A stretch of DNA of 34,383 nt from Acutalibacteraceae bacterium (GCA_045591605.1 JAZNTC010000182.1:1-34383), one strand, 5' to 3'; numbered from the stretch's first letter, positions 897-31,601 are shown. The notes: generated by a model from the letters alone, not told the origin. Numbers and translations: made by a program.

Positions 897-917
897 ACGC
901 ATCCTCCTGTCGAGTAT

Positions 918-938: not shown

Positions 939-942
939 CTCC

Positions 943-971: not shown

Positions 972-1008
972 CGGGGCGCTCCTTGAGCGCCCCTCGTGTC
1001 CCTTTTTG
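960..1008 (-). terminator. Rho-independent terminator after folD (has T-tracts on both strands)
   Basis: Stem GGGGCGCTC (973-981) pairs with GAGCGCCCC (985-993), extended by GGACAAC / GTGTCC. Flanked by an A-run upstream and TTTTTG downstream. Confidence 0.7.
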
Positions 1009-1012
1009 TTTA

Positions 1013-2867: not shown

Positions 2868-2917
2868 AGTATGTAACCTCCTTAAGGTTTGAATGCTCAC
2901 CCTATGTATACCGCCCG

Positions 2918-4192: not shown

Positions 4193-5477
4193 CGGCTTCC
4201 CCTCCTTCCTCGGTTTCGCCGCTCGGCAACAGGCGAAATTCACACGCGATCTCCCACGCGGCGACCGCCGCCAAAATGCGTTCACGTGTGACGGCGGCAA
4301 TGGCATCTGCCGCCTCTTCGGGCGTTTCGGGTGCTTCGGTTGCCTCCGACAGATACCACGAAGCCAGCGACGGCTGGGAATCCCCCATCGTGCAATACTG
4401 GCTGACAAGATAGCGACGGGTGTTTTCCATGTCCTCGTCGGTAAACTCGCCCGCTTTCAAAAGGGCGAGTTGACGTTCAATCTCGGCACGGGCGGCAGGA
4501 ATCTTTTCCGCCTCCACACCGCTGTCGATCATGCCGACACCTTTCAAGCGGTCAAACGACGAGGCGCAGTAATAGCAAAGACTTAACTTTTCGCGCACGG
4601 TGCAAAACAACATGGAAAAGGCGGTGCCGCCGAACAGGGCGCTTGCCATACGCGTTGCCGGCACGTCCAATTCCTCGGCGGTGCTCACCAGTCCCAGCAC
4701 CATTTTGCCCTGTGCCACCGCCATACGCTCTTCGCTGTCGAGACGTTCTCCTGTCATAATGTGACGCGTCAACACGGGGGTGAAGGGGGTGCGCTCGATC
4801 GCGCAGAAACCCTCCACAAACGGGGCGGCCACCGCTTCGGGGTCGCCGTTGCCTTGATAAATAATCTGCACACGAGCGGTACGCAACATGGCTTTCCACG
4901 CGGCGGTCACGTCGGCGGCGGAAAGTGCGGTCACCGATTCCTCCGTGCCGTACAGACGCACCGCAAACGGTTCGCCTCGGCACAGCAGTTCCATGCAACG
5001 GGCACGCGCATAGGTGCGCTTGTTATTGATTTCGGCGCGGATGGTCTCCACCAAGCAACGCCGTTCTTCTTCCATATCTTCGGCGCGAAACACCCCGTTT
5101 TCCAACACAGGCTCAAACAGCATGTCGCGCAACAGGGCGGCACACTGCGCCGCCACCGCCTCCCCATTCAGGGCAAAGCGGTCGTCCAGACAGGTCATCT
5201 GCAAAAAGAGGGAATGGGATTCCCCTGCACGCCCCACACCGGCGGAAAGGTGCGCACCGTACAAACGGTCCAACTCGCGTTTCAGTTCAGGAAAGGTGGG
5301 AAACCGACGGCTGCCGCGCCGCAACAAAAATGGCACCATCGCCTGCGCCGCCGCTACCTCTTCGGACAGCGGCATCAGCAGTTGCACCGTGAGAGAGGCG
5401 GTTTTAAACCGCCCTTCGGTATCGGGAATGGCGATCACGCGCAATCCCGCGGAAGGTTCCAATACCCTAATCGACAA
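4185..5477 (-). CDS. M16B peptidase-like partner subunit lacking HxxEH (probably non-catalytic)
   Basis: Insulinase-fold-like sequence with no HxxEH anywhere. TTG start at 5477, 8 nt after AAGGAGG. Translationally coupled to the downstream catalytic subunit. Confidence 0.75.
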   Translation of the reverse strand: MSIRVLEPSAGLRVIAIPDTEGRFKTASLTVQLLMPLSEEVAAAQAMVPFLLRRGSRRFPTFPELKRELDRLYGAHLSAGVGRAGESHSLFLQMTCLDDRFALNGEAVAAQCAALLRDMLFEPVLENGVFRAEDMEEERRCLVETIRAEINNKRTYARARCMELLCRGEPFAVRLYGTEESVTALSAADVTAAWKAMLRTARVQIIYQGNGDPEAVAAPFVEGFCAIERTPFTPVLTRHIMTGERLDSEERMAVAQGKMVLGLVSTAEELDVPATRMASALFGGTAFSMLFCTVREKLSLCYYCASSFDRLKGVGMIDSGVEAEKIPAARAEIERQLALLKAGEFTDEDMENTRRYLVSQYCTMGDSQPSLASWYLSEATEAPETPEEAADAIAAVTRERILAAVAAWEIACEFRLLPSGETEEGGEADA

Positions 5478-14463: not shown

Positions 14464-15411
14464 TTACTTTTTCAGAGTCAACGCTTCGCGCACTTTTTTA
14501 ACGATCGCGTCTGCCGACAAACCGAACAGCGGCAACAGGTCGAGTGCCGGGCCGGATTTGCCGAAGGTGTCTTGCACACCCACGCGCAACACGGGAACGG
14601 GGCACTTTTCGGCCACGGCTTCCGCCACGGCACTGCCCAAACCGCCAATGATGTTGTGTTCTTCGGCGGTGACGATCGCGCCCGTTTCGGCGGCGGCTTG
14701 CCACACCAATTCGCGGTCGAGCGGCTTGATGGTTGCCATGTTGATCACACGGGCGGCAATCCCTTCGGCGGCAAGGATATCCGCCGCTTTCAGCGCTTCG
14801 CCGAGCAACAGACCGTTTGCAATGATCGCCACGTCGTTGCCTTCACGCAAGGTTACACCCTTGCCGATTTCAAATTTGTAATCCGACGGGGTGACGTTTT
14901 CCACCGCCAAGCGCCCAAAGCGCAGATACACAGGACCTTCCATCGCGGCGGCGGCAAACACCGCCTGTGTGGCTTCGTTGTCGTCGGCAGGGGAAATGAT
15001 GGTCATGCCGGGAATGGTGCGCATCAGTGCAATATCCTCACAGCACTGGTGGGTCGCACCGTCCTCGCCCACCGAAATACCGGCATGGGTCGCACCGATT
15101 TTCACGTTCAGGTGCGGATAGCCGATGGAGTTGCGGATCTGTTCGAACGCACGACCGGCGGCAAACATCGCAAAAGAGGAGGCAAACACCACCTTGCCGG
15201 TGGTGGCGAGACCTGCCGCAATGCTCATCATATTGCCTTCCGCAATGCCGCAATCGAAGAAACGGTCGGGGAATGCTTTTTTGAAACCGCCCGTTTTGGT
15301 GGCGGCGGCGAGGTCGGCATCCAGCACCACCAGGTTGGGCATGCTCTCGCCCAACGCGACCAGTACTGCGCCATAGGAGTCACGGGTTGCTTTTTTCACT
15401 ACGTCTGCCAT
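14464..15411 (-). CDS. tkt: Transketolase, C-terminal (pyrimidine-binding) subunit
   Basis: MADVVKKATRDSYG..., FFDCGIAEGNMMSIAAGLA, EDGATHQ. ATG at 15411 is 5 nt after the upstream stop. Confidence 0.9.
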   Translation of the reverse strand: MADVVKKATRDSYGAVLVALGESMPNLVVLDADLAAATKTGGFKKAFPDRFFDCGIAEGNMMSIAAGLATTGKVVFASSFAMFAAGRAFEQIRNSIGYPHLNVKIGATHAGISVGEDGATHQCCEDIALMRTIPGMTIISPADDNEATQAVFAAAAMEGPVYLRFGRLAVENVTPSDYKFEIGKGVTLREGNDVAIIANGLLLGEALKAADILAAEGIAARVINMATIKPLDRELVWQAAAETGAIVTAEEHNIIGGLGSAVAEAVAEKCPVPVLRVGVQDTFGKSGPALDLLPLFGLSADAIVKKVREALTLKK

Positions 15412-15415
15412 GATC

Positions 15416-16258
15416 TCAACCCTCCAATTCCGCAAGGCGTGCGCTCAGTTCCGCCATCGCCGCATCGTACTGTTCTTTGTTCGGTGCACTGCCGTGCCAA
15501 CCCACCTGGTTTTCCATGAAGGAAACACCCTTGCCTTTGGTGGTGCGCATAATAATGGCGGTGGGCTGACCTTTGGTGGAGCGTGCGCCCGAAAACGCCA
15601 TTTCCAACTGGTCAAAATCGTGGCCATCCACCACGATCACGCGGAACCCGAATGCCGCAAACTTTTCCGGAATGGGATGCGGATTGTTCACTTCGCGCAC
15701 CGTACCGTCGATTTGCAGGTCGTTGTTATCCACAATCACGCACAGGTTGTCCAGCCCTTTGGCCGCCGCAAACATGGCGGCTTCCCACACCTGACCTTCT
15801 TGAATCTCACCGTCGCCCAGAATGGAGTACACGCGATAATCCGCGCCGTCCAGCTTGCCGCCGAGTGCCATGCCGACCGCCGCCGAAACGCCCTGACCGA
15901 GCGAGCCGGAGGACATATCCACACCGGGGGTGCCCTTCATGTCGGGGTGTCCTTGCAACATCGCACCGATGTGGCGGAGGTTTTGAATCTCTGCACGGTC
16001 AAAATAGCCTTTTTCCGCCAGAGCGCCGTATAGCGCCGGTGCGGCGTGACCCTTGGAAAGCACCACACGGTCACGGGAAGGGTCTTTGGGATGTTTGGGA
16101 TCCACCTTCATTTCCTTCCAGTATAAGTACGTCAGCACGTCCGCAATGGAAAGCGAGCCGCCGGGGTGACCGCTTTTTGCATGGAACGTGCCCTCGATAA
16201 TGTCCATGCGGATACGAGTCGCTGTTGCCGCAAGACAAGTCTTTTCACGTGTGTCCAT
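15416..16258 (-). CDS. tkt: Transketolase, N-terminal (ThDP-binding) subunit
   Basis: SGHPGGSLSIADVL, LGDGEIQEGQVWEA. ATG at 16258 (MDTREK) is 9 nt after GGAGG. The track start at 16267 is a TTG abutting the SD. Confidence 0.9.
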   Translation of the reverse strand: MDTREKTCLAATATRIRMDIIEGTFHAKSGHPGGSLSIADVLTYLYWKEMKVDPKHPKDPSRDRVVLSKGHAAPALYGALAEKGYFDRAEIQNLRHIGAMLQGHPDMKGTPGVDMSSGSLGQGVSAAVGMALGGKLDGADYRVYSILGDGEIQEGQVWEAAMFAAAKGLDNLCVIVDNNDLQIDGTVREVNNPHPIPEKFAAFGFRVIVVDGHDFDQLEMAFSGARSTKGQPTAIIMRTTKGKGVSFMENQVGWHGSAPNKEQYDAAMAELSARLAELEG

Positions 16259-16367
16259 TACATACAACCTCCATGTTCGGTGATTACTTGTTCAGTATAC
16301 CATACCTCTTTCAAAAAAGGAAGAGCAAACCCGTAAAAATCGCGCGTTTTTTTACAAAAACCGACTC

Positions 16368-17937: not shown

Positions 17938-19122
17938 TCAGTAGAGTGCAAGGTATTTCGCCGTCATGGTGTCGATGGCGTAGCGCTCGTGGGCTTCGGC
18001 CACCAGTTGGTCGGTGTCATAGTGGGTGTTTAATGCCGTGTGCAGTGCGGCTTCGAGCGCATCCGCGTCCCCTTGCTTCACAAAGGTGCTGAAATCGGGC
18101 AGGGCAATGGTTTCGGGTGCGCCGGCTTCATATCCCACCACGGGGGTACCGCAACACAGCGATTCCGCCGTCACCATCGAAAAGGTTTCACGCAGGCTGG
18201 TGAGCAGCGTGACGTCCGCCATGGTGTAGTATGCCGCCATTTCGCGGCGGTCGGTTGTGTGGGAAGCGGGGATTACGTTGGGCGGCAAGGCGGCAGGGTC
18301 GCTTTTGAACCCGATCACCACAAACCGATGGTGCGGCATTCTGCGTGCCATCTCCAACACGGTCTCGCCGCCTTTCAGCGGATCGTAAAAGTTCGGGGTG
18401 ACGTGCAAGATCACCTTTTCGTCGGGTGAAATGCCGTGCCGTTCACGCAGAGCAAACTCGTGGTTTGGGGAGAACACCGCGGTGTCCAACCCGTTTTCCA
18501 CCGTGACAAATCGCCGCCCTTCAAAAATGGGGGATGCCGCGGCGCGAGCGGTCAACCACGGCGAAACCCCCACCACCGTCAATTCGGGAAAGTCGGCAAG
18601 TGCCGCCTTCATTTTGCGGTAGCAATGGCGCGCATCGTCGCGCCACCAATGGGTGAGCATGCCGCGGATCTGCGGACAATCGTGACATTCCGTTCGCCAC
18701 TTCTCGCAATCCAATGCGTGGGCGCAGCCTGCCGTGTGCATCAGTTCGGCATGCAAGGTCAACACGGTGGGAATATGGTGCTTTTTCAAAAACCGCACCA
18801 AGCGATACACGTTGACAAAATGCCCGTTCAAGCAATGCAGATGCACCGTGTCGGGCTGTGTGCGGCGAATCAGGTGAAGCAGTCGTGCGGTGGCGACGGG
18901 TGAAAAACCAAATTCTACCCCCCAAAGTCGCGAGAGAACCGCGTGCACCTTGGATTCCCACTCGGAGGATGTGCGATATACGTTGTTGGCGTCGGGTGCG
19001 TGGTATCGCCCGTAACAAGCGATCATCTCGTGTCCCTCTGCTTCGGCGGTGCGATGAATGTCCGCCATAATCTTGCCGGTGCTTCCGCGATCAAAAAAGC
19101 AGTTGATCTGCAACACGCGCAT
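17938..19122 (-). CDS. GT4-family glycosyltransferase with an inserted Cys4 motif
   Basis: MRVLQINCFFDRGSTGKI..., C-terminal GT-B fold region (SLRETFSMVTAESLCCGTPVVG, the E-x7-E region). C-x5-C-x6-C-x2-C in GCAHALDCEKWRTECHDCPQ. ATG at 19122 after AGAGGTGA. Confidence 0.8.
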   Translation of the reverse strand: MRVLQINCFFDRGSTGKIMADIHRTAEAEGHEMIACYGRYHAPDANNVYRTSSEWESKVHAVLSRLWGVEFGFSPVATARLLHLIRRTQPDTVHLHCLNGHFVNVYRLVRFLKKHHIPTVLTLHAELMHTAGCAHALDCEKWRTECHDCPQIRGMLTHWWRDDARHCYRKMKAALADFPELTVVGVSPWLTARAAASPIFEGRRFVTVENGLDTAVFSPNHEFALRERHGISPDEKVILHVTPNFYDPLKGGETVLEMARRMPHHRFVVIGFKSDPAALPPNVIPASHTTDRREMAAYYTMADVTLLTSLRETFSMVTAESLCCGTPVVGYEAGAPETIALPDFSTFVKQGDADALEAALHTALNTHYDTDQLVAEAHERYAIDTMTAKYLALY

Positions 19123-19155
19123 ACGGCTCACCTCTTTCTGCTTAACGTTATTGTT

Positions 19156-19184
19156 ATTATAACGAAAATACGCCCCCTTGTCAA
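19156..19184 (-). promoter_or_regulatory. Perfect consensus sigma-70 promoter (TTGACA-17-TATAAT) for the GT4 gene
   Basis: Minus strand -35 TTGACA (19179-19184), 17-nt spacer, -10 TATAAT (19156-19161). Confidence 0.75.
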
Positions 19185-19289
19185 TGGTGAAATTTTTCGA
19201 AATATAAAGGGGCATGTTTTTGCAAAATTCTCAATATCTGTAATATTTCCGTTTAATTATACGATTTGTAAATACCAAAGCCTTTTCTC

Positions 19290-19318: not shown

Positions 19319-19371
19319 AGTAACAACCATGTAATACGCGCGAAGCGTAAACGGCAAAGGACGTGCATACA

Positions 19372-20016
19372 ATGAAGATTTCTCCCTCGGTTATGACTTG
19401 TGATTTCTCGCGCTTGGATCGTGCGGTGGCGGCGGCGGATGCGTGGGGCGCGGATCGTCTGCATCTGGACGTGATGGACGGCGTGTTTGTGCCGAACCTC
19501 TCGTTTGGTCCGCCGGTGATCGCCTCGTTGCGTCCGCTCACAACGATGCCGTTTGACGTGCACCTGATGGTGCAAGACCCTGCCGCGTTGCTGGATGCGT
19601 ATGTGAAAGCGGGCGCGGACATGATCACGATTCACGCGGAGTGTTCATCACCGCTGGAAGAAACGCTTCGTCGCATCCGCGAGGCCGGATGCAAGGTGGG
19701 GTTGTCCCTCAACCCCGGCACACCTGTGGAGGTGCTGTGGCCGTATTTGCCGCTGTTGGATCTGGTGTTGGTGATGGCGGTGCAACCCGGTTTCGGCGGT
19801 CAATCCTTCCGCCCCGAGTGCTTGTCCAAAATCACCGCGATCCGCGCACAGTGTGAACGACTTGGGTTGGATATCGACATCGAGGTGGACGGCGGCGTGA
19901 AAGCCGCCAACATCAAAGACGTGGCGGCTGCCGGTGCTTCGTCGGTCGTGATGGGCAGCGCGCTGTATGATGCGGCGGACCCGGCCCCTCTGCTCACCTT
20001 GGCGCGGTCACTGTGA
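19372..20016 (+). CDS. rpe: Ribulose-phosphate 3-epimerase
   Basis: LHLDVMDGVFVPNLSFG, DVHLMV, VQPGFGGQSF, DGGV. Confidence 0.92.
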   Translation: MKISPSVMTCDFSRLDRAVAAADAWGADRLHLDVMDGVFVPNLSFGPPVIASLRPLTTMPFDVHLMVQDPAALLDAYVKAGADMITIHAECSSPLEETLRRIREAGCKVGLSLNPGTPVEVLWPYLPLLDLVLVMAVQPGFGGQSFRPECLSKITAIRAQCERLGLDIDIEVDGGVKAANIKDVAAAGASSVVMGSALYDAADPAPLLTLARSL

Positions 20017-20523
20017 GCGTGTGCGCAAAAACAGTTGCGGCAATGCGTCGCACGTAAGCCACGCATCGCCGTGTTCCGCCACAAAGGCTTCGGTTTCGGT
20101 GGTGGGGCGTGCACATTCCGCCAGTGCCGCAAACGGCGGCACACCGCACAGAATCAGCCGAAACCCGTCGGCGGTGCGGTACAGTGAACTGCTTTCGCCT
20201 TCGGCATGGGTGGGTTGTTGCCACGCAGCGGCAATCTGCAACAGCGCATCTTCGTCGGCAATGTGAAACACGGTGGATGCACACGCTTCTTGCGGTGTGA
20301 CAAGCAGTAAACACCCGTCGGCGGTGGGGAGTGCCTCCACCGAACACGCGCCTTTGGGCGCAAACCCGACACGGCGGCGCGCCACCTGCAACACGGTGCG
20401 CAACATACGCTGTGTTTTGGGGTCGTGTGAATGCAACCTATCAAAACTGAGCCCCATGGCGGTGAGCTCATCGTCCGATAAAAGCAGTGCAAGACATCCG
20501 TTATCGGTCATGTTTACCTGCAA
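20008..20523 (-). CDS. MecA-like adaptor protein (short clostridial form)
   Basis: N-terminal pattern ..LALLLSDDELTAMGLSFDRL.., then VEALPTADGCLLLVT, SSLYRTADGFRLIL and FVAEHGDAWL. These resemble the MecA family layout from memory; no HMM was run. Start is TTG 20523 or ATG 20511. Confidence 0.55.
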   Translation of the reverse strand: MQVNMTDNGCLALLLSDDELTAMGLSFDRLHSHDPKTQRMLRTVLQVARRRVGFAPKGACSVEALPTADGCLLLVTPQEACASTVFHIADEDALLQIAAAWQQPTHAEGESSSLYRTADGFRLILCGVPPFAALAECARPTTETEAFVAEHGDAWLTCDALPQLFLRTRSQ

Positions 20524-20622
20524 TGGGATCCCTCATTTCTCGCATAAATCTACCTCCATCATACCGCAAGGCGTACCGCGTGCGCAAGTGGGGATGGTTG
20601 GAAACGAAAGGTGTGAACCCTC

Positions 20623-21870
20623 ATGTCTCTGTTTTCCCCACGTGGGATGCGCCTGCCCTCGCTGAAAGAGCCTGCGGCCGGACGCGCTGTGGAAGAGCCC
20701 CAAACCCTTACACGGGTGTATTTGCCGCTCTCTCACGGGGAAAAGACCCGTGTGAGCCTGCATCGGTACGCTTCGGCGCTGTGCGGACAAACGGTGGCGA
20801 AACCTGTCGGTAAAAAGACCGTGCCGATTCTCTCATCGGTCAGCGGTGTGTATACCGATCAAACAACCTTCTCCCACCCAGTATATGGCGAGACGACTTG
20901 TCTTGTGATGGATTGCATGGATGTGCACCGTCCGCCGGCAGGGGAACGGGCAGACGTGACCGATCTGTCCGCCGAAACGATACTGGAAGCGGCGCGCACC
21001 TGTGCCGTTCGGGACGAGTTGGACGGACGGTATCTCTATGATAAATTGCAAGAATGGGCCGCCGAAGGCTGTGACGTGTTGGTGGGCGATGCGGTGGAAA
21101 ATCAACCGTATGCTTGCGCCGCCTGGGCGGTGTTGAATGAAAGCGCAGAAGCGGTGTACGAAGGGCTTACCCTCGCGGCACGCGTGGTGGGCGCTTCGGA
21201 ATACCATTTGGCGGTGCAACCGTTGCCTGCCGATCATCGCCGTGCGTTGCGCCAACGCCTTGGCGGTGACGAAAAACTGTTTCAGGTGCGCAGTAAATAT
21301 CCGGCGGTGGATTACACCGAAAACCCTAAGGGCAAAACGGTGCGCCGCATCGGCGTGCAGGCATTGCTCGCGCTGTTGCGTGCCGCCGCGTTTGGTGAAG
21401 GACACACCTCCTGCGTGGTGACAGTAGCCGGTGAAGCGGTGGCGACACCGCGCAACCTGCGTGTGCCGTTCGGCACGCCGGCTTCGGCGTTGCTTCACTT
21501 ATGCGGTCTGTCTGCCGACCCGACGGTCATCGTCTTTGGTGATTTGATGACGGGTGTGGCAGTGACCGATGAGGAAATGCCGATTTTGGCAGGGGTGACC
21601 TGTCTGCTTGCGTTGGTCGATTCGCCCCGTCCGCCGGCGGACGTGTGCGTGGGTTGCGGTCGTTGCGTGCAGGTGTGCCACGCCGGCTTGTTGCCGGAGG
21701 CGATCGTGCAACGGTTGGAAAAAGGGCAAAACGAGTACATCAAAGCGCTTCACGCCGAACAATGCGATAATTGCGGTGCGTGTTCCGCCGTGTGTCCTGC
21801 GGGGCGTGACCTCGCGATGTCCATTGCCACGGTGGCAAAGGTGATTGCCGAGGGAGGTGTTGAGCAATGA
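20623..21870 (+). CDS. RnfC-like iron-sulfur subunit lacking the flavin/NADH glycine-rich loop
   Basis: Collinear with RnfC: an N-terminal barrel-sandwich-like segment (VYLPLSHGEKTRV...ILSSVSGVY). VVTVAGEAVATPRNLRVPFGTPASALLHLCG matches the RnfC SLBB region. Two ferredoxin motifs, CVGCGRCVQVCH and CDNCGACSAVCP. No G-x-GGAGFP motif anywhere. Confidence 0.8.
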   Translation: MSLFSPRGMRLPSLKEPAAGRAVEEPQTLTRVYLPLSHGEKTRVSLHRYASALCGQTVAKPVGKKTVPILSSVSGVYTDQTTFSHPVYGETTCLVMDCMDVHRPPAGERADVTDLSAETILEAARTCAVRDELDGRYLYDKLQEWAAEGCDVLVGDAVENQPYACAAWAVLNESAEAVYEGLTLAARVVGASEYHLAVQPLPADHRRALRQRLGGDEKLFQVRSKYPAVDYTENPKGKTVRRIGVQALLALLRAAAFGEGHTSCVVTVAGEAVATPRNLRVPFGTPASALLHLCGLSADPTVIVFGDLMTGVAVTDEEMPILAGVTCLLALVDSPRPPADVCVGCGRCVQVCHAGLLPEAIVQRLEKGQNEYIKALHAEQCDNCGACSAVCPAGRDLAMSIATVAKVIAEGGVEQ

Positions 21871-22859
21871 CGGCTTTTCGCACAACGCCGCACCTGCGGC
21901 AAACCGAATCTGCCGCCTCCCGTTGTTGGGACATGCTCATTCCGCTGGTACCGCTCACGGTGTATTCCTGTGTGTATTACGGACTGCGTCCGCTGATTGT
22001 TATGTTGATCTCGGTCGTGTCCGCGATGGTGTTTGAGCTGCTTGGCTATGCCCTGCAAATGAAACGCGCGCCCCTCACCGACGGCACCGCCGCCGTGACG
22101 GGCGGTGTGATCGGATTGGTGATGTCCCCCATCGTGCCGTACTGGTTGCCTGTGGTGGCATGTGCGGTGGCGATTTTGGCGGCAAAACTGCCGTTTGGCG
22201 GTCGCGGACGCAACCTCTTTAACCCGGCGGCGACGGGCCTTGCCTTTATCACGGTGTGTTTCCCCAATCAGATGTTCGCCTATCCCGATCCCGAGCGTCC
22301 CATCACCGAACTTTCGCAGGTGATCCCTGCGGTGTCGCCTGCCGCGTTGATCCAAACGGGAGCAACGCCGCACATCAGTCCCATGGACATCGTGCTCAGC
22401 AATTTCCCGAGCCCGATCGGCTCGGTGATGATCATTCTGGTCGGTTGTATGTTGTATCTGTTCGTGCGGCGTGCCTCGTCGCCGAGCATTGTGTTGCCGT
22501 TTCTTGCTACCTGTGCGTTGGGTGCGGCACTGTTTCCGCGTGTGAACAGCGGTGTGGGGGCAAGCGTGCTGTTGGAACTGTGTGCCGGCTATTTGATGAT
22601 CACCGCCGTGTTTTTGATCGCGGATCCCACCACCGCACCGCGCCATTGGTTAGCGCGCATCGTGTACGGCGTGGTGGCAGGCGCGCTGGTGATGGCCTTG
22701 CGCCACGTGGGCAAATTCGAAGAAGGCGCGTGCTTTGCCGTGTTGCTTTGCAACCTGTTCTCCAACATCTTGGATCGCAACTGCTGGAAACTGTGTTATC
22801 ATCTGCCGCACTTGTGGCGGCGTGAAAAGGCGACCGAGGGAGGTGACACGGATGAGTGA
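21867..22859 (+). CDS. RnfD/NqrB-family membrane subunit
   Basis: LTDGTAAVTGGVIGL, GGRGRNLFNPAATGLAF, TGATP (flavinylation-type motif), FLIADPTTAP, GKFEEGACFAVLLCNLFSNILD. The ATG overlaps the upstream stop (ATGA). Confidence 0.85.
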   Translation: MTAFRTTPHLRQTESAASRCWDMLIPLVPLTVYSCVYYGLRPLIVMLISVVSAMVFELLGYALQMKRAPLTDGTAAVTGGVIGLVMSPIVPYWLPVVACAVAILAAKLPFGGRGRNLFNPAATGLAFITVCFPNQMFAYPDPERPITELSQVIPAVSPAALIQTGATPHISPMDIVLSNFPSPIGSVMIILVGCMLYLFVRRASSPSIVLPFLATCALGAALFPRVNSGVGASVLLELCAGYLMITAVFLIADPTTAPRHWLARIVYGVVAGALVMALRHVGKFEEGACFAVLLCNLFSNILDRNCWKLCYHLPHLWRREKATEGGDTDE

Positions 22860-23508
22860 ACCGCGTGAACAAGGGCGTTTTTCCCGTTTGGCGAAGATCT
22901 TCTTTGACACCTTTCTTGTGCGTAACATCGTGCTGGTGAAACTGCTCGGTCTGTGCCCCATCGTGGTGGCGGCGGTGGATTTGAAAGCCGGTGTCACCCT
23001 TACCGCGTGTGTGGCACTCGCCTTGCTTCCCACCGCGCTGTTGATGTCCTTCGTGGGCGAAAAACTGAAACCCGTCATCCGTGTACCGCTCTATACCGTG
23101 ATCGCGTTGGTGATCCTGCTCGGTGCCGGATTTGTGCTCAACACCTACATTGAGCCGGAACTTTATGCCTCGCTGTATCTGTTTTTGCCCCTGCTCGCGG
23201 TGAATTCGCTGATGACCTATCGCGTGGGCGGTTTCGCTGTGGTGAGCCGTCCGCCCGAAGCCGTGGCGGATGCACTCGGTTCGGTGTGCGGGTTCGGGGT
23301 GGTCATCTGTGTGGTGGCGGCGGTGCGTGAACTGTTGGCCAACGGCTCGATGTGGGACGTGCGGTTGCTGTCCACGCCGCCGCTCACGGCGGCATCCTCG
23401 CCGTTCTTTGCCTTTTTGATGCTCGGTATGTTGGCGGCGTTGATGCAGTTTGTGCGCGAAATGCTTCGCCGTTTTGTAGAAGGGGAGGTGTCGGTGCCGT
23501 ATGAATGA
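22852..23508 (+). CDS. RnfE/NqrD-like membrane subunit (divergent)
   Basis: NIVLVKLLGLCPIVV (first half-motif kept), LPLLAVNSLM (Cys position is Ser). Start overlaps the rnfD-like stop by 8 nt. Confidence 0.75.
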   Translation: MSEPREQGRFSRLAKIFFDTFLVRNIVLVKLLGLCPIVVAAVDLKAGVTLTACVALALLPTALLMSFVGEKLKPVIRVPLYTVIALVILLGAGFVLNTYIEPELYASLYLFLPLLAVNSLMTYRVGGFAVVSRPPEAVADALGSVCGFGVVICVVAAVRELLANGSMWDVRLLSTPPLTAASSPFFAFLMLGMLAALMQFVREMLRRFVEGEVSVPYE

Positions 23509-24085
23509 GTTGTTGACTATGCTGTTCGCCACCGCGCTGTTCCAAAACGTGGTGCTCACCACCGGCTTCGGCAGTTCGCTGGCGTTGCGTGTGATCCACC
23601 GTAAAAGCGACATCTGGAAATTTGGGGGTATATTATCGTTCTTCCTCATCACCACCATGGCGATTGATTATCCGCTGGATCATTTGCTCGGATTCGGTGT
23701 GTGGGCGAAACTGTTGCGCCCCTTGGTGATGGTGGGGGTTGCCATGGCACTTTACTGCGCCGTTACCCTCATCACGGCACGCATTTCGGTGCCGTTTTAT
23801 CACAAGTTGAAACCCTATCTGATCCCGGCCGTGTTCAACGATCTGACCCTCGGTCTGGCAATGGTTGCCAACCACAAGGTCACCCTCACCTTCTGGGGGA
23901 CGATGGGTCTGGCGGTGGGCAGTTGCCTCGGTTTTATGCTGATGGGGTGGATCATTTTGGAAGGGCGTTTTCGCATCAATGCCCATGCCGTGCCGCGCGC
24001 CTTTCGCGGTGCGCCGGTGATCCTCATCTATCTCGGCATCGCGGCACTCGCCATGCTTGGCTTCGGCAGCAGCATTTTGCTGTGA
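23501..24085 (+). CDS. RnfA/NqrE-like membrane subunit (divergent, both conserved Cys positions substituted)
   Basis: C-terminal VPRAFRGAPVILIYLGIAALAMLGFG matches the RnfA VP.PFRG......GLMSLAFMGF region. N-terminal QNVVLTTGFGSS and central IPAVFNDLTLG replace the LGLCP and TTNC motifs. Start overlaps the upstream stop by 8 nt. Confidence 0.75.
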   Translation: MNELLTMLFATALFQNVVLTTGFGSSLALRVIHRKSDIWKFGGILSFFLITTMAIDYPLDHLLGFGVWAKLLRPLVMVGVAMALYCAVTLITARISVPFYHKLKPYLIPAVFNDLTLGLAMVANHKVTLTFWGTMGLAVGSCLGFMLMGWIILEGRFRINAHAVPRAFRGAPVILIYLGIAALAMLGFGSSILL

Positions 24086-24117: not shown

Positions 24118-24153
24118 AAAGTTCCCACAAGCGGCTGCTTGCGGGAACTTTTT
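24118..24153. terminator. Bidirectional terminator between rnfA-like and the convergent degV
   Basis: AAAGTTCCC-a-CAAGC (24118-24132), loop GGCT, GCTTG-c-GGGAACTTT (24137-24151), with T-runs on both strands. Confidence 0.8.
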
Positions 24154-24170: not shown

Positions 24171-25025
24171 TTATTTTGTCATAAACAGCACGCCGAGCGT
24201 TTCGGGGCCGCAATGGCAGGAGATGGTGCAACCGGCACGCGTAACGTAGATGTTTTCGAACGGGCCGCATTCCGCGACCACCTTCTTCAGCGCTTCGACG
24301 TTTTCGTCGGCGGTGCCGGAATGGGTGATGAACACCTTTTCGTAGTCGATGTTGTCATACGCCGCCAGCGTTTCGCGCACATACTGCTCGCGCACTTTGG
24401 CAAGCGGACCGCGGTATTTTTTACCCACGCCCATCGTGCCGTCGGCATTGTTCACTTCGATGCAGGGTTTGAGTTGCAACACGTTCGCGCCCATCATGGC
24501 GAGTGCCGAGCAACGGCCGCCCTTGTGCAGGAATTCCAAACGGTCCAACACAAAACTGGCATGGCAATGCGGCACCAAGGCGCGCAATTCTTCGGCAATC
24601 TGCTCGGCAGGCAAACCTGCCGCAATGCGCTTCGCCGCTTCGATCACCAGCAAGCCCGAACCGGTGGACAGGTTACACGAGTCAACAACCCACACGTTGC
24701 CCACTTCTTCTGCCGCCAATCCTGCGTTTTGGCAGGAGGAGGACAGTCCGTGTCCGAGCGAGATGTGAATCACGTCACAGCCGGTATCCACAAAACTGCG
24801 GAAGAACTCTTCATACGTGGCGATGTTGATCGCCGCGGTGCGCGGCAACTGCTTGGTCTCGCGATAAATTGCATAAATACGGTCGGGATCGATGGTGATA
24901 CCGTCGAGATATTGCTCATCCCCCAACGTCACGTTAAACGGCACGGTACGAACATTGTATTTTTCCAGCAACACATCCCCCAAATCGCAGGTGCTGTCGG
25001 CGGAAAGAATGATCGGTCTGCTCAT
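24171..25025 (-). CDS. DegV-family fatty-acid-binding protein
   Basis: 284 aa. IILSADSTCDL..., ...TAAINIATYEEFF..., ...SFVLDRLEFLHKGGR... layout typical of DegV/EDD-fold proteins. Confidence 0.85.
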   Translation of the reverse strand: MSRPIILSADSTCDLGDVLLEKYNVRTVPFNVTLGDEQYLDGITIDPDRIYAIYRETKQLPRTAAINIATYEEFFRSFVDTGCDVIHISLGHGLSSSCQNAGLAAEEVGNVWVVDSCNLSTGSGLLVIEAAKRIAAGLPAEQIAEELRALVPHCHASFVLDRLEFLHKGGRCSALAMMGANVLQLKPCIEVNNADGTMGVGKKYRGPLAKVREQYVRETLAAYDNIDYEKVFITHSGTADENVEALKKVVAECGPFENIYVTRAGCTISCHCGPETLGVLFMTK

Positions 25026-25201: not shown

Positions 25202-28200
25202 ATGGAACGAAACAAGATCTCTTTGAAACTCTCGTTGTGGGAGATCCTGCGCATCGTCGCGATGGTGCTGTTCTTTGTGGGCATCACGGTGCTGGGGTAT
25301 TGGTATTTCACCCACGACAACGCGCAGTTGGAAGTGCGTAACGAAGCGCAAAAACTGCTGTATCCGTTGGGGCTGGGTATGTTGCTCGGCGGTCTGCTCA
25401 CCGCCACCTTGGCGGCGCTGGCATGGAACCACAGCGAGGAACGTCCCGTGTGGTACTATCCCGTGGTGTCGGCATTTCTCACCTTCTGCGGTCTCGGTCT
25501 GGCATACGTTCTGCTGGGCATTTGGCCGATCGCGGAAGAAACCTGTATGATCGTGGATATGCACCACCAATACGGTCCACTGCTTGCCAAACTGCGCGCC
25601 ATGCTGCTTCAGGGGAACGGATTTTTCTATTCGTTTGATCTCGGTATGGGTGCGAACTTCTTACCTGCATTTGCCTATTACCTTGCCAGTCCGCTCAATG
25701 CCTTGCTTGTGTTGTTCCCCGAATCGCTGTTGCCCGAAGGCATCTTCCTCATCACCATTGTGAAGAATATGCTGATTGCGGCAAGTTTTGCGCTGTGCGT
25801 GCAATACGTTTACGGCAAACGCTCGCCCGTGGTGGTGGCGGTGTCGCTGATGTATTCCATGATGATGTACGTGTTGGCATACTCTTGGAACATCATGTGG
25901 CTGGACGGTGTGATCGCTCTGCCGCTGGTGGTGATGGGTTTTGAGCACATGATGCGTCGCGGCAAATATTTGCCCTACGTGCTGTCGCTGGCATACGCCT
26001 TGTTTGCGAACTACTACATCGGCTTTATGCTGTGTGTATTTTTAGTGCTGTATTTCTTCGCCTATCTGTTTCGCCAAAAGCGCGAAACCAAAAACAACCG
26101 CTTGGCGCTGTGGCGTTTCACGCTGGGCTCGTTGCTCGGCGGCGGTCTCGCTATGTTCTTGGTGTTGCCCACCTTCCTCGCATTGGGGCAGACCTCGGCG
26201 GCAGGCGCCCAAATGCCCGATTGGGACGTGTATTTTGAACTGTTTGACATGCTGGGTCGTCACCTCTATCGCGTGTCTCCCACCATTCGTTCCCGTTTCT
26301 TGCCCAACGTGTATTGCGGCATTGCCGCGGTGGTGTTGGTGCCGCTGTTTGCGATGAACGAGGGGATTCCCCGTCGCCGCCGCATGGTGTATATGGCGTT
26401 GCTCGCGGTGTTGGCATTCAGCCTGCCGCTCAACCAGGCAAACCTGTTGTGGCACGGCTTGCACGCCCCCAACGACCTGCCCTACCGTTTCTCCTTCCTC
26501 TATTGCTTCGTTCTCATTTTGCTCAGCTACGAAACGCTGTTGCACATTCGCACGGTGCAGCCGCGCCAAATCGTGGCCACCTTTCTCGGTGTCCTCACTT
26601 TCATTGTGTTGCAAGAGCGGTTTGGTAACAGCGAAACCTACGGGTTTCAGTCGCTGTATATCAGCTTGTTGCTCGCGGCGATTTATGCGGTGTTGTGCTT
26701 CTTGCTGTCGCAGGAAAAGGTGCGCCGCCGTGTGGGCGCGATGATGGTGCTAACCGTGGTGGCGATGGAAATGACCTTGAATGCCACCAACGTGATGAAT
26801 CAGTTGGACAGCCAGGAATATTACACCAACCACGAACACTACGTGGATAACATCACCACCGCCGGCGTGCGCGAAGCGGTGGACACGATGGAACGCAAAC
26901 TGGCGCAAAGCGGCGATTTGTTCTCCCGTATGGAGTTCATCCCTCGCCGCACCTGCATGGATACCGCCCTGTTCCAGTATAGCGGCATTACCTCGTTTGC
27001 ATCCAGCAACTCCTATCGCACCACGCGGTTTATGGGCGCGATGGGCTATGCGGTCAACGGCGTGAACAGTTATCTCTATAAGAGTTTCGTTCCCGTGACC
27101 GACTCGTTGCTCGGCATTCGCTACGTCGCGTTGGAAGGCAACCTGTCCTCCCACACCCAGTTGAAGCAGGTGGATTATGCCTACGTGTCGAACAACAAGG
27201 GCGAAGAAAAAGCGTTTTATATTTATGAAAATACGACGGCGTTGCCGATTGCGTGGCGTGCCAATGACACGGTGAAAACCTGGGCATCGTCCTATTACAA
27301 CCCCGTGGAAAGCATCAACGGGCTGTATGCCGCCATGACGGGCGACCCGTCCCCGGTGCTGGTGCCGATGCAAATTGAACCGTATAACGATATGCGCGGT
27401 GCGGTCACCGTCAACGGGACGTACGGCTTTCAGTTAAAGTCGTCCTCCTCCAAAACGGCGGAGTTCCGCGCCTACGCGGATGAAGACGGGCAGTATTTCA
27501 TTTACGTGGATTGCCGCGGTGCGGATTCCATTCAGGTGACGCAGGGCGATAACAGTTGGAGTGTCACCACCTACGAACCGTATTTCATTGATGCAGGCAC
27601 CCTTTCGGCAGGCGCCCCCGTTGCCGTGACGATCACGTCGGACACCTCTTGCGCCGGCAACGTGTACGTGGTGCGCATGGATGCCGCGGTGTTCAACCGC
27701 GCGATCGAGACCCTGCGCGCCGACGGGTTGCAGGTCACCGAGTACACCGATAACCGCATGGTGGGCAACGTGACAGCATCGGCTGTCGGTGCGATGGTCA
27801 CCTCCATCCCCTATGATGCCGGCTGGCGCGTGAAGGTGGACGGCAAGGAAGTAGCGACCTATCCGCTGGATCAAGCGGTGCCCGATGGGGTGAAACCCGA
27901 AGACAACAAGGGCGGTGCTCTGCTCGGCTTTGACATCCCGGCAGGCGCACACGAGGTGGAACTCGTCTTTGTGCCGCACGGCTTTGTGCCGGGGGTGTTG
28001 CTCAGCCTGATTAGTCTGCTGTTGATTGTGGCGGTGGCGTTGCTCACCGGCCGCAAGGCGCATTGGGCAAAGGCGACACCCGTGGCGTGGATGGTGGATA
28101 CCACCGATCTGGATGCCCTGCCGACCGCCGATGAAACGGAATCGGTACGGCTCGATGAGGAGTCGCCCCTTGCGAAAGAACCGTTGCCGGACGAAGAATC

Positions 28201-28282
28201 GCCCGTTGAGACAGAGCGGTTGACCGACGAGAGCGAGGAACAAAAACCTGCCCCCCAAGAAAGTGAGGAGACCGCCGAATGA
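25202..28282 (+). CDS. YfhO-family GT-C membrane glycosyltransferase (1026 aa) with C-terminal TM helix and acidic tail
   Basis: FFYSFDLGMGANFLPAFAYYLASPLNALLVLFPE and many TM helices, then a large extracytoplasmic domain, a terminal TM helix and a D/E-rich tail. Confidence 0.8.
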   Translation: MERNKISLKLSLWEILRIVAMVLFFVGITVLGYWYFTHDNAQLEVRNEAQKLLYPLGLGMLLGGLLTATLAALAWNHSEERPVWYYPVVSAFLTFCGLGLAYVLLGIWPIAEETCMIVDMHHQYGPLLAKLRAMLLQGNGFFYSFDLGMGANFLPAFAYYLASPLNALLVLFPESLLPEGIFLITIVKNMLIAASFALCVQYVYGKRSPVVVAVSLMYSMMMYVLAYSWNIMWLDGVIALPLVVMGFEHMMRRGKYLPYVLSLAYALFANYYIGFMLCVFLVLYFFAYLFRQKRETKNNRLALWRFTLGSLLGGGLAMFLVLPTFLALGQTSAAGAQMPDWDVYFELFDMLGRHLYRVSPTIRSRFLPNVYCGIAAVVLVPLFAMNEGIPRRRRMVYMALLAVLAFSLPLNQANLLWHGLHAPNDLPYRFSFLYCFVLILLSYETLLHIRTVQPRQIVATFLGVLTFIVLQERFGNSETYGFQSLYISLLLAAIYAVLCFLLSQEKVRRRVGAMMVLTVVAMEMTLNATNVMNQLDSQEYYTNHEHYVDNITTAGVREAVDTMERKLAQSGDLFSRMEFIPRRTCMDTALFQYSGITSFASSNSYRTTRFMGAMGYAVNGVNSYLYKSFVPVTDSLLGIRYVALEGNLSSHTQLKQVDYAYVSNNKGEEKAFYIYENTTALPIAWRANDTVKTWASSYYNPVESINGLYAAMTGDPSPVLVPMQIEPYNDMRGAVTVNGTYGFQLKSSSSKTAEFRAYADEDGQYFIYVDCRGADSIQVTQGDNSWSVTTYEPYFIDAGTLSAGAPVAVTITSDTSCAGNVYVVRMDAAVFNRAIETLRADGLQVTEYTDNRMVGNVTASAVGAMVTSIPYDAGWRVKVDGKEVATYPLDQAVPDGVKPEDNKGGALLGFDIPAGAHEVELVFVPHGFVPGVLLSLISLLLIVAVALLTGRKAHWAKATPVAWMVDTTDLDALPTADETESVRLDEESPLAKEPLPDEESPVETERLTDESEEQKPAPQESEETAE

Positions 28283-29223
28283 TTACGGTAATTATGCCGG
28301 TATATAATGAAGGCGAATTTATCTATCAAAACGTCTGCCGCGTGCGAGAGATACTCTCCGCCGCCGCGGTGGAACACCAGTTTTTGCTGGTAGACGACGG
28401 GTCAAAGGACAATTCCTTTGCCGAAATGTCCCGTCTGGCCGACGATTTCGAGGACGTATCCATCATCGGCCTGTCTCGCAACTTCGGTAAGGAGGCGGCG
28501 CTTTGTGCGGCGCTGGAAAATGCCGACGGCGATGCGGTGGTGGTGATGGATTCCGACCTGCAGCATCCGCCGAAATACATCCCCGAGATGGTGCGTTTAT
28601 GGAAAGAGGAAGGCTACGACGTGGTGGAAGGGGTCAAGGAAGACCGCGGCAAGGAATCGCTCGGCAGTAAGATTGCCGCCTTACTGTTTTATCGCACCTT
28701 TGCCAAATCCACCGGCATCGACATCGGCATCGCTTCGGATTTCAAACTGCTGGATCGCTCGGTGGTGGAAGCGTGGCGCAAACTGCCCGAACGTAATACC
28801 TTCTTCCGCGGTTTGTCCGCATGGGTGGGCTTCAAACGGTATGCCCTCCCCTTCAAAGTGGCGCCCCGTGCCGGCGGCGAAACCAAATGGACGTTCAAAG
28901 GTCTGGCGCGGTTAGCGCTCAATTCCCTCACCGCTTATTCCTCTGCGCCGCTGTTTTTGGTATTCTGGCTCGGTGTGTTGATGCTGCTCGCCGCCGTGGT
29001 GCTGACGGTGGAAACCTTGGTGATGTATTTTGCACGCCACGCCGCCCCCGGCTTTTCCACCGTTATTCTGTTGCAGTTGTTCATCGGCAGTGCCACCATG
29101 ATGAGCCTCAGCATAATCGGCATGTACATTGCGAAGATTTACGAGGAAGTCAAGGGACGTCCGCGCTACCTCATTCGTGCGGCGCGCGGTCGTGCGCTGA
29201 CCGCCTACAATAAGGAAAAATAA
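28279..29223 (+). CDS. GT2 polyprenyl-phosphate glycosyltransferase (GtrB/CsbB-like)
   Basis: VIMPVYNE, LLVDDGSKD, VMDSDLQHPP, two C-terminal TM helices. The ATG overlaps the yfhO-like stop (ATGA). Confidence 0.85.
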   Translation: MITVIMPVYNEGEFIYQNVCRVREILSAAAVEHQFLLVDDGSKDNSFAEMSRLADDFEDVSIIGLSRNFGKEAALCAALENADGDAVVVMDSDLQHPPKYIPEMVRLWKEEGYDVVEGVKEDRGKESLGSKIAALLFYRTFAKSTGIDIGIASDFKLLDRSVVEAWRKLPERNTFFRGLSAWVGFKRYALPFKVAPRAGGETKWTFKGLARLALNSLTAYSSAPLFLVFWLGVLMLLAAVVLTVETLVMYFARHAAPGFSTVILLQLFIGSATMMSLSIIGMYIAKIYEEVKGRPRYLIRAARGRALTAYNKEK

Positions 29224-29342: not shown

Positions 29343-30053
29343 ATGAAAAAGATTTCTGTTATTGCACTGGTGTGCGCGTTGGCTATGATGCTGACGGTTC
29401 CGTTCGGCGCGTTTGCGGATGCGTCTTTCGCTTTCAATGCGAAGGATGTTTCCGGCAAAGTTGGCGATGAAGTTACTGTGGCGGTCGAATTCGCCATGGG
29501 TGAAGGCGTGTACCTGCTGAACGGCGACTTCGTGATCAGCTATCCCGCTGACAAACTGGATCTCGTGGTTCCTCCGAAGACCGGTGTGGCTGATCCGGCC
29601 AACAAGCTCTGCACTCTGACCGGCGTGTTTTTTGAAGTCAAGGCTGACGAAGACAAGGGCGAAATCAAGATTAACTTCGCGGATAGTTCTGCTGAAGCTC
29701 TGGCGAACATGACCGAGAAGGTCTTTGCCAAACTGCCCTTCGTCATCAAGGAAGGCGCTGAAGGCAAGATCGAGGTCGCGATCAACACCACCACCCTCAT
29801 GAGAACTGAGGATGGCATTACCGGTATTGACGCTCTGGCCGAGGAAGGCGAAATCACCGCTACTGCTGTGATCAACGTGGAGAAGGAAGCTGTTACTACT
29901 ACCACCACCAAGGCTACCACCGCTGCTCCGACCACTGCGGCTACCACCAAGGCTCCGACCGCTGCCGGCGAAGCTACTCCGTGGGCGCTGCTGGCGACCG
30001 TGACCGTTGCCGGTGCTGCTCTGGTTGTTCTGTCCACCAAGAAGAGCAAATAA
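29343..30053 (+). CDS. Secreted single-cohesin-domain protein with Thr-rich linker and C-terminal TM anchor
   Basis: Signal peptide MKKISVIALVCALAMMLTVPFGAFA. Cohesin-like pattern VSGKVGDEVTVAVEF...NGDFVISYPADKLDLV...KINFADSS...FAKLPFVIKEGAEGKIEVAI. Linker TTTTTKATTAAPTTAATTKAPTAAG. Tail PWALLATVTVAGAALVVLSTKKSK. Confidence 0.7.
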   Translation: MKKISVIALVCALAMMLTVPFGAFADASFAFNAKDVSGKVGDEVTVAVEFAMGEGVYLLNGDFVISYPADKLDLVVPPKTGVADPANKLCTLTGVFFEVKADEDKGEIKINFADSSAEALANMTEKVFAKLPFVIKEGAEGKIEVAINTTTLMRTEDGITGIDALAEEGEITATAVINVEKEAVTTTTTKATTAAPTTAATTKAPTAAGEATPWALLATVTVAGAALVVLSTKKSK

Positions 30054-30492: not shown

Positions 30493-31410
30493 TTATTTCC
30501 TGCCCAACTTTGCGAAGAACCGGAAGGTCAGCGGCCACACACAACCGGCAAAGGCGGCAACGAGAAAATAGCGGATGCCGTCGGCCACGGGCGTGCCGCC
30601 GCACAGGGCAGTAAGCGGCACTTTCAGCCCCGATTTGATGGCGAGAAGCGGCAAAAGTCCCAACACCATCTTCAAAATTTGCGCCCACCACACGGCGGCG
30701 GTGTCAAAATGCAAGGCACGCTCATCCACTTCGAATGCCAGCCACAACCCAAGAAAACACCCCATCATTTTATGCGCCGTTTTCACACCGCTTTCGTAGT
30801 TGTGGGGGTCGATATCGGCAGGGAACGGAAACCACGTGACAAACGCCAAAAAGGCGACGGCAAGGAAGGCGCATGCCGCAAACAGTATGCGCATGCGGCG
30901 AGGACTTTGCAACGCGTTATTCACCAGCGGATACATCACCAGCACCAACGCGGTGCCCACCGCGAGGGATACGCCCACATCGAGCGGTGTGTGCACGCCG
31001 AGATACATCCGCGAAAGAGCGACCAGCGCACACAAAAGCAACAGCGCACCGCGCACCCACCACCGCGCGGCAAACCGCGCAATGCCGCCAAACAATCCCA
31101 CTGCGGTTTGGGTGTGTCCGCTGGGGAAGGAATAGCCGGTGGCGGCTTCCTTGGCATTGCCCACCACCGTAAGTGAAGGGTCTTGCACCCACGGACGCGG
31201 AATACGAACCAGCAGCTTCAAGAATTGATTCATCACCGTGCCCAAGAACCCGACAAACAGCAAATAGTAACCTTGTCGCTTGTTGATGCACCAGAAAAAC
31301 AGCAATCCTGCCACGATAAACAGCGTTTCTTCTCCGCATTGCGTCACAAGCGAAAAGAACGCATCCAAAAGCGGAGTACGCAACCCCGAAAGCCAATGCA
31401 AAAACGCCAT
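30493..31410 (-). CDS. PAP2-family lipid phosphatase (possible undecaprenyl-diphosphate or phosphatidate phosphatase) with extra C-terminal TM region
   Basis: KLLVRIPRP, PSGH and SRMYLGVHTPLD motifs. ATG at 31410 (MAFLHWL) is 7 nt after AAAGGAGG. The upstream part of ORF 30493..31650 is a non-coding extension. Confidence 0.85.
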   Translation of the reverse strand: MAFLHWLSGLRTPLLDAFFSLVTQCGEETLFIVAGLLFFWCINKRQGYYLLFVGFLGTVMNQFLKLLVRIPRPWVQDPSLTVVGNAKEAATGYSFPSGHTQTAVGLFGGIARFAARWWVRGALLLLCALVALSRMYLGVHTPLDVGVSLAVGTALVLVMYPLVNNALQSPRRMRILFAACAFLAVAFLAFVTWFPFPADIDPHNYESGVKTAHKMMGCFLGLWLAFEVDERALHFDTAAVWWAQILKMVLGLLPLLAIKSGLKVPLTALCGGTPVADGIRYFLVAAFAGCVWPLTFRFFAKLGRK

Positions 31411-31444
31411 GCGCCGGCCTCCTTTAACCCACAGTATACACCAG

Positions 31445-31473
31445 TATATACCACAAAGTTCCGCCGATGTCAA
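31445..31473 (-). promoter_or_regulatory. PAP2 gene promoter: TTGACA-17-TATATA with TGg extension
   Basis: Minus strand -35 at 31468-31473, -10 at 31445-31450. Confidence 0.6.
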
Positions 31474-31497
31474 ATGCGCGGCGTGTCGAATTTCTAC

Positions 31498-31526
31498 TTG
31501 ATATATTGGGTAGAATATGTTATAAT
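31498..31526 (+). promoter_or_regulatory. Promoter of the capD-like/degT-like operon: TTGATA-17-TATAAT
   Basis: -35 at 31498-31503, -10 at 31521-31526. Confidence 0.65.
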
Positions 31527-31601
31527 ACAGTAAATTATACTGTGTGAGTGTGCTCTTTTCGCGAAAGGCGGCGAAATGGAGCCCAAAAGGATGTGACAGG
31601 A

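Follow-up and report, generated by a model that had tools for sequence, protein, structure and literature searches.

The operon described here lies in a stretch of 34,383 nucleotides (nt) from an Acutalibacteraceae bacterium (GCA_045591605.1, JAZNTC010000182.1), hereafter called the window. Its four genes, which we name C', D', E' and A' after the Rnf subunits RnfC, RnfD, RnfE and RnfA to which their products are related, form a conserved, selected and translationally coupled unit that cannot be a ferredoxin:NAD+ (nicotinamide adenine dinucleotide) oxidoreductase of a known kind. We tentatively propose that they encode a distinct Rnf-derived membrane complex that keeps only the inner part of the Rnf electron wire, from the iron-sulphur (Fe-S) clusters of C' to the flavin of D'. 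A sequence-only reading of the window had suggested a distinct four-gene membrane complex derived from the Rnf/Nqr scaffold instead of a surplus copy of a ferredoxin:NAD+ oxidoreductase, and had found no function to assign to it. The absence of G- and B-type genes from loci across the family and the loss of cofactor sites support this suggestion, and C'D'E'A' appears to be a family of Rnf/Nqr-derived complexes for which our literature search gave no functional study.

A translationally coupled operon without rnfG or rnfB

ORF calling in the window recovered four plus-strand open reading frames (ORFs) in the order C'-D'-E'-A', with exactly the boundaries that had first been read from the sequence (Table 1). 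Consecutive genes are joined by start/stop overlaps: the C'/D' junction at 21867 is ATGA (context caATGAcgg), the D'/E' junction at 22852 is ATGAGTGA (context ggATGAGTGAacc), where the two genes overlap by 8 nt, and the E'/A' junction at 23501 is ATGAATGA (context tATGAATGAg). A GGAGG-like ribosome-binding site precedes all three junctions, and C' has an AAAGG site 5' of it. From this translational coupling we infer that the products may assemble as a stoichiometric complex. The claim that neither rnfG nor rnfB is present held: D' runs directly into E', A' is followed by a hairpin that terminates the operon and, from the other side, the convergent degV, and the window ORFs that were scanned yielded no rnfG, rnfB, ApbE or FMN_bind gene; the others among them are housekeeping or envelope genes.

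The C-D-E-A arrangement is conserved far beyond chance. Searching with C' for homologues gave 240 proteins; uncultured Clostridia were the source of every one, and none had a name more specific than '4Fe-4S dicluster domain-containing protein'. In a survey of one genome per species, relatives occurred in at least 123 species genomes; the best 80, which we inspected, were all metagenome-assembled genomes of uncultured Oscillospirales. They carried the labels Acutalibacteraceae, Oscillospiraceae, Ruminococcaceae or Clostridia and came from the guts of animals and humans and from further anaerobic habitats; the nearest relative is 97% identical. The order C-D-E-A is kept in about 70 distinct loci, in which overlaps of 4, 8 or 11 nt occur and almost all junctions show either an overlap of 1-25 nt or a short gap of a few nt, about 100 nt at the most. 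No related locus has a gene-sized space between D' and E', and no G- or B-type domain was found among the Pfam-annotated genes of those related loci that carry gene calls.

The same conservation extends to the upstream neighbours, so that a block of rpe (plus strand), a mecA-like gene (minus strand) and C'-D'-E'-A' is found in every locus long enough to contain it. The rpe gene lies upstream in nearly all 89 loci of the near clade (L001-L089), being missing only on two contigs that are too short (L019 and L076), and also in the more distant L091-L095. The mecA-like gene is present in most loci, including that of the cultured species Acetanaerobacterium elongatum (GCA_900103835.1) and one locus, L092, that lacks C'. 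The window shares with L001-L089 the overlapping block together with DELDG in C', Ser-Pro in D', and GFGSS and FN(N/D) in A'. In pairwise comparisons with relatives at 72-97% identity, the ratio of nonsynonymous to synonymous substitution rates (dN/dS) was 0.01-0.18 for all four genes, like that of rpe and degV. Given these conserved loci and this ratio, the operon is neither an artefact nor a relic.

Family assignment of the four proteins

The three membrane subunits score above the Pfam gathering thresholds: D' with NQR2_RnfD_RnfE (5.5e-66, 223 bits), its single Pfam domain, and E' and A' with Rnf-Nqr (7e-29, 101.5 bits and 6e-11, 43 bits, respectively). For C', the matches to RnfC_N, Complex1_51K and SLBB stay under the respective cut-offs, and that to the 4Fe-4S dicluster domain of Pfam is clear. 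Against the stricter NCBIfam models all four fall well short: C' reaches 149 bits with rnfC (cut-off 246), D' 160 bits with rnfD (cut-off 207), E' 74 bits with rnfE (cut-off 213) and A' 46 bits with rnfA (cut-off 229), while the nqrA, nqrB, nqrD and nqrE models give 14-98 bits against cut-offs of 235-792. The best relatives of solved structure are the RnfC, RnfD, RnfE and RnfA chains of A. woodii (9eri), C. tetanomorphum (7zc6) and A. vinelandii (8ahx), with D' matching 7zc6_D at 2.9e-33. An AlphaFold2 model of C' (predicted local distance difference test score 80) found RnfC as its best Foldseek match (template-modelling score 0.71), followed by NqrA, which carries no cofactors (0.55).

Cofactor sites lost and kept

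The loss of cofactor sites that had been noticed in the window holds across the family but is not complete: the substrate loop of C' and three of the four membrane cluster cysteines of E' and A' are gone, but C' keeps both of its [4Fe-4S] sites, and the serine at the flavin position of D' is invariant. In C', residues 131-135 (DELDG, context RDELDGRY) stand where RnfC/RsxC has GLGGAGFP (GxGGAGFP), the glycine-rich, NuoF-type loop for flavin mononucleotide (FMN) and NADH. DELDG is invariant in the clade, and the C' of A. elongatum has DETDG. Further along, C' has two complete CxxCxxCxxxC motifs (C342/345/348/352 and C381/384/387/391), whose eight cysteines are present in 81 of 81 family members and align with those of E. 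coli RsxC.

In Rnf from C. tetanomorphum, FMN is bound covalently to Thr153 of RnfD, Vitt et al. placed Asn124 and Asp248 at the riboflavin/Na+ constriction, and the distances are 7.7 Å from the RnfD FMN to riboflavin and 11.7 Å from riboflavin to the [4Fe-4S] cluster RnfC-2 (PMC9588780). The position of Thr153 is occupied in D' by a serine (AVSPAA), found in 79 of 79 sequences and followed by proline in 70 of them; the residue before it varies (A, T, L, V, S or Q; the window has PAVS). D' also keeps the motifs FNPA and (A/T)DP (ADPTT in the window), which hold the equivalents of Asn124 and Asp248. Several further cysteines are 86-99% conserved in the clade and absent from canonical RnfD and RnfC, namely C131, C216 and C239 of D' and C93, C294 and C327 of C'.

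The membrane iron centre (Fe or [2Fe-2S]) of solved Rnf is held by Cys25 and Cys113 of RnfA and Cys26 and Cys109 of RnfE (PMC9588780). E' retains the first RnfE cysteine (C35, in LGLCP) in 71 of 75 sequences and the second in none of 75, where Thr or Ser stands instead (VNC having become VNS in the window), and A' has neither of its two in any of 75, Ser (GFGSS) and Asn or Asp (FND in the window) taking their places. A single canonical cluster cysteine of the four thus survives. More distant lineages retain a different one, the second of A', which supports a real loss of the four-cysteine site over a shifted alignment. The glutamates that gate Na+ in A. woodii Rnf, RnfE-E115 and RnfA-E88 (PMC11889175), are likewise replaced, by Gly, Ala or Val in E' (Gly in the window) and by Val, Thr or Ile in A'. 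Both proteins retain the broken-helix N-x motifs. Two other cysteines of E', C53 and C153, are near-invariant in the clade and absent from canonical RnfE. The new cysteines of C', D' and E' may belong to a metal site or a thiol relay, or may merely serve packing.

The Rnf wire has therefore lost its two ends as well as the first step across the membrane, and the segment that remains conserved would run from two [4Fe-4S] clusters in C through riboflavin to FMN in D.

A wider family and its putative DUF4015 partner

The operon belongs to a larger Oscillospirales family in which D'E'A' and a DUF4015 gene are the common core and C' is absent from some lineages. An A'-like profile run against 1.84 billion representative proteins matched 629 clusters at E<=1e-10. 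The best 150 of these have 22-44% identity to the window A'; almost all of them are without the first RnfA cysteine and about half are also without the second. A second profile, built from distant members, matched 730 proteins, of which the named ones belong to Oscillospiraceae or Ruminococcaceae and include A. elongatum. In A. elongatum and one relative the order is rpe, mecA, C'D'E'A', DUF4015, and one further distant lineage has rpe, C'D'E'A', DUF4015. Two lineages, represented by L092 and L094, have rpe, in part mecA, then D'E'A', DUF4015 and yajC; they lack C', and no remnant of it was found in these loci. The A' proteins of the C'-less lineages are indexed in 31 (L092) and 61 (L094) blocks of the contig collection, and C'-less forms are therefore common in metagenomes. 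The exact window protein has no record in the contig index.

DUF4015 lies directly downstream of A' in 37 of the 70 near-clade loci and in five of five distant loci; it is gone from the locus in the window and its two closest relatives. The proteins have a basic N-terminal tail, one transmembrane helix, a linker rich in Ser, Thr, Pro and Glu, and an outward glycoside-hydrolase-like domain, which gives them the membrane topology of RnfG (a type-II anchor with an extracytoplasmic domain). Their relatives are limited to a Pfam domain of unknown function (DUF) and one uncharacterised PDB entry (4s1a).

The lineages without C' allow D' to be compared with and without its putative electron partner. 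Our sample consisted of seven D' sequences from C'-containing lineages (representing the window's 79-sequence clade and the A. elongatum and L093 lineages) and of the two C'-less lineages. In all seven of the former, the flavin position or one beside it holds a residue with a hydroxyl group; it is Ser in six, and in L093 the residues are Thr-Ser and the column is ambiguous. The C'-less L092 and L094 have Asp or Gly at this position, and their FNPA and TDP motifs are degraded. The Fe-S sites predicted in C' and the residues at the flavin site in D' thus show both conservation and co-variation.

A model for the C'D'E'A' complex

We propose the following model. A cytoplasmic electron donor or acceptor would dock on the Fe-S clusters of C', and C' and D' would together form a short electron link from this cytoplasmic partner to the flavin or flavins reaching the outer face via D'. 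E' and A' would serve as a cluster-free structural, possibly ion-conducting, module. Where DUF4015 is present, it would be an outward-facing partner in the topological place of RnfG.

Several points weigh against this model. The cofactor content of C'D'E'A' is predicted from sequence. The Ser-for-Thr exchange in D' and the variable residue before it appear to fit the ApbE flavinylation motif poorly, no ApbE or FMN_bind was found among the window ORFs scanned or in the loci with Pfam calls, and no recognisable substrate site is left in C'. The occurrence of D'E'A'-DUF4015 without C' shows that the membrane core needs no Fe-S input to function, so the family may originally have had a non-redox role. 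The window itself has no DUF4015 gene. Finally, the genes of the isolate BL-6, discussed below, are placed in the family by annotation, not by sequence.

The main rival, which we regard as somewhat unlikely, is a function outside redox chemistry: the cofactor-poor membrane core D'E'A' and DUF4015 would be a non-redox machine, for example a transporter or an ion-driven device for envelope glycan metabolism, and C' an optional regulatory or redox-sensing cap. The presence of D'E'A'-DUF4015 in very distant lineages, two of them without C', speaks for such a machine, as does the frequency with which the type-II anchored, extracytoplasmic DUF4015 protein is encoded after A' in the near clade, although shared synteny may reflect nothing more than vertical inheritance. 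It would also sit well with the loss of both the canonical Fe-S ligands and the Na+-gating glutamates, with the resemblance of the A and E subunits of solved Rnf to a rocker-switch transporter (PMC11889175), and with a window rich in envelope genes (GT4, YfhO, GT2, CapD-like, PAP2 and Lgt). Yet strong purifying selection acts on C'D'E'A' in the window and its closest relatives, from which DUF4015 has gone, the eight Fe-S cysteines of C' and the Ser of D' are invariant in the clade, and the co-variation of C' with the flavin motifs of D' points to a working redox pair. We prefer, still tentatively, the C'-D' electron link.

It is improbable that a membrane metal or Fe-S centre has been re-ligated inside E' by C35, C53 and C153, such that electrons still cross through E'A'. 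C53 and C153 are present in 74 and 73 of 75 sequences, respectively, where canonical RnfE has A/S and F/A/T, and arithmetic on helix depth suggests that the three cysteines would lie at a similar depth in the membrane. However, C53 is not kept more widely (it is Thr, Ser and Ala in A. elongatum, L092 and L093), A' offers no candidate for a fourth ligand (the position varies between Asn, Asp and Thr), and without RnfB and RnfG nothing feeds or drains such a centre.

An ordinary Rnf supplied with RnfG and RnfB in trans is effectively excluded. One RsxB-like gene does lie elsewhere in the BL-6 genome, but that closed genome lists no rnfG, at least 123 species have the four-gene arrangement as a fixed feature, each of the four proteins scores well under the NCBIfam cut-offs for Rnf, and three of the four A/E Fe-S ligands and the FMN/NADH loop of C' are missing wherever G and B might come from. 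A decaying rnf remnant or an assembly artefact, to which the low scores against Rnf models might have pointed, is refuted by intact reading frames, overlaps kept in about 70 loci, low dN/dS, family-specific invariant residues and the same gene order in independent assemblies, in the A. elongatum isolate and, by annotation, in the closed BL-6 genome.

A broader view, speculative and in our judgement quite unlikely, would make the family a third major branch of Rnf/Nqr, in which the ion-pumping redox loop has been dismantled and D'E'A' re-coupled to DUF4015 in the place of RnfG, with C' feeding it in some lineages. The result would be a redox- or ion-driven envelope machine of gut Oscillospirales, unrelated to ferredoxin:NAD+ energy conservation.

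Genomic neighbourhood

The features of the window and of the related loci mentioned in the text are collected in Table 1.

Table 1. Coordinates of the operon, its neighbours and related features. Positions are those of the window unless a locus is named.
Feature	Location	Strand	Remarks
C'	20623..21870	+	415 amino acids; RnfC-fold cytoplasmic subunit
D'	21867..22859	+	330 amino acids; RnfD/NqrB-type membrane subunit
E'	22852..23508	+	218 amino acids counted from ATG; RnfE/NqrD-type
A'	23501..24085	+	194 amino acids; RnfA/NqrE-type
Hairpin terminator	24118..24151	both	15 pairs, 7 GC; T-runs on either strand; terminator scan and sequence reading
degV	24171-25025		Convergent with the operon
rpe	19363..20016	+	Ribulose-phosphate 3-epimerase; Pfam Ribul_P_3_epim 7e-72; conserved upstream neighbour
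mecA-like gene	20008..20523	-	Pfam MecA 7e-09, N-terminal domain match only; divergent from the operon
Intergenic region	20524..20622		99 bp; common to the mecA-like gene and C'
GT4 gene	17938-19215		
CapD-like gene	31548-33476		
PAP2 gene	30493-31650		
Lgt gene	1848-2921		Adjoins M16-family ORFs
YfhO-family gene and GT2 gene	25202-29223		Membrane protein of 1026 amino acids, then overlapping GT2 glycosyltransferase
Transketolase genes	14464-16267	-	Split into N-terminal and C-terminal genes; 20-nt overlap
Cohesin-domain protein	29343-30053	+	Small protein
DUF11/DUF7507 repeat protein	42-1307	-	Cell-surface-like
M16-family peptidase-like ORFs	2918-4408; 4185-5477	-	Adjacent; overlap of about 220 nt from first possible starts
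DUF4015 genes after A'	L013:11478-12701; L001:13570-14823; L091:8827-10047		
C'-less relatives	L092:6260-9848; L094:5291-8806		D' with long charged C-terminal tail; flavin-site Ser lost

When the upstream regions of nine close relatives were aligned, a TCCATCATACC block was found to be conserved in the intergenic region between the mecA-like gene and C'. Read on the minus strand it is TATGAT, probably the -10 element of mecA. The idea of a sporulation-type promoter was dropped because this only conserved upstream block most simply serves the mecA-like gene; a check by eye also gave no convincing spacing for sigma-E, sigma-K, sigma-G or sigma-F. A riboswitch or leader 5' of C' was rejected, there being no credible Rfam match in 20300-20800, and no Rfam family reached its gathering score anywhere in the window. 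The mecA-like gene evolves fast, with 27-45% identity in most relatives whose C' is 40-60% identical.

The YfhO, GT2, GT4, CapD-like and PAP2 genes make the neighbourhood rich in envelope functions. The pairing of YfhO with GT2 presumably resembles that of modules that glycosylate teichoic acids. The cohesin-domain protein is a hint that this organism may build surface assemblies of the cellulosome or amylosome type. In the case of the two M16-family ORFs, the true start of the first probably lies further downstream, given the length of their overlap. A split transketolase and a DUF11/DUF7507 repeat protein are also present in the window.

Significance

The labels 'RnfA', 'RnfC', 'RnfD' and 'RnfE' are given to these proteins by MicroScope (for BL-6) and by JGI and UniRef (for some members), and could lead them to be counted towards Rnf in metabolic reconstructions. 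Such mislabelling would wrongly credit abundant gut and rumen Clostridia (Acutalibacteraceae, Oscillospiraceae and their relatives) with ferredoxin:NAD+ energy conservation. The family is also a natural experiment, in that both substrate modules are gone, as is the membrane Fe-S centre, and yet strong selection persists, and it bears on the debate over which Rnf/Nqr subunits carry ions and which carry electrons. Cultured carriers exist: A. elongatum, the nearest identified, is confirmed by sequence context, and BL-6 is indicated by annotation only.

Comparison with known systems

We found no description of the C'D'E'A' arrangement in reviews of Rnf and Nqr, in papers on their evolution or in flavinylation surveys. 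The string 'rnfCDEA' does occur in the literature, and was rejected as the same arrangement because it is a fragment of rnfCDEAB; similarly, 'Rnf-like complex' was rejected because it denotes a two-subunit system. We found a single printed mention of the four-gene set, which came without interpretation. Liu et al. remarked on "only four" Rnf genes in the isolate BL-6 (Acutalibacteraceae, Clostridium_E), and the table for its closed genome gives the order exported protein, rnfA, rnfE, rnfD, rnfC, unknown; it places one isolated RsxB-like gene elsewhere and includes an Ech hydrogenase and no rnfG (PMC7764203). The authors treated the locus as an incomplete Rnf and invoked Ech for energy conservation (PMC7764203). 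BL-6 belongs to the same family-level taxon as the window and the layout of its locus mirrors the synteny described here; known from an annotation table alone, it is a candidate member.

The closest known system is Rnf itself (RnfCDGEAB), with which the operon shares four homologous subunits, C, D, E and A, whose order relative to one another is unchanged. C' has the RnfC fold and its two [4Fe-4S] motifs, and D' has the motifs around the flavin sites. Unlike Rnf, whose six subunits share one transcription unit, the window operon is without the extracytoplasmic FMN protein RnfG, the polyferredoxin RnfB through which ferredoxin feeds in and the FMN/NADH loop, lacks three of the four A/E cysteines, RnfE-E115 and RnfA-E88, has Ser in D' in place of the FMN-Thr, and encodes subunits that all score below the NCBIfam cut-offs.

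Reduction of this scaffold has a precedent in the two-subunit 'Nqr/Rnf-like' complexes of Huang, Meheust and colleagues, in which an RnfD-like protein fused to an NAD-binding domain is accompanied by an RnfG-like flavoprotein, and which are proposed to transfer electrons one way across the membrane in other taxa such as Ktedonobacter (PMC11334425). Like the window operon, these complexes have a changed flavinylation site in the D-like subunit. In contrast, their subunit set is the opposite one: the G-like protein is kept, C, E and A are absent, and a cytosolic NAD(P)H domain is present, whereas D' is a single-domain protein without an FMN_bind partner.

Na+-NQR (NqrABCDEF) is also an Rnf derivative. 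It keeps the Fe-S centre between its D and E subunits and the flavoprotein NqrC, and it has gained NqrF, whereas the window operon has no NqrC- or NqrF-type gene. NqrA, the RnfC homologue, is without Fe-S clusters, whereas C' keeps both. NqrA has lost the NADH/FMN function, which shows that the ends of the scaffold can be re-purposed.

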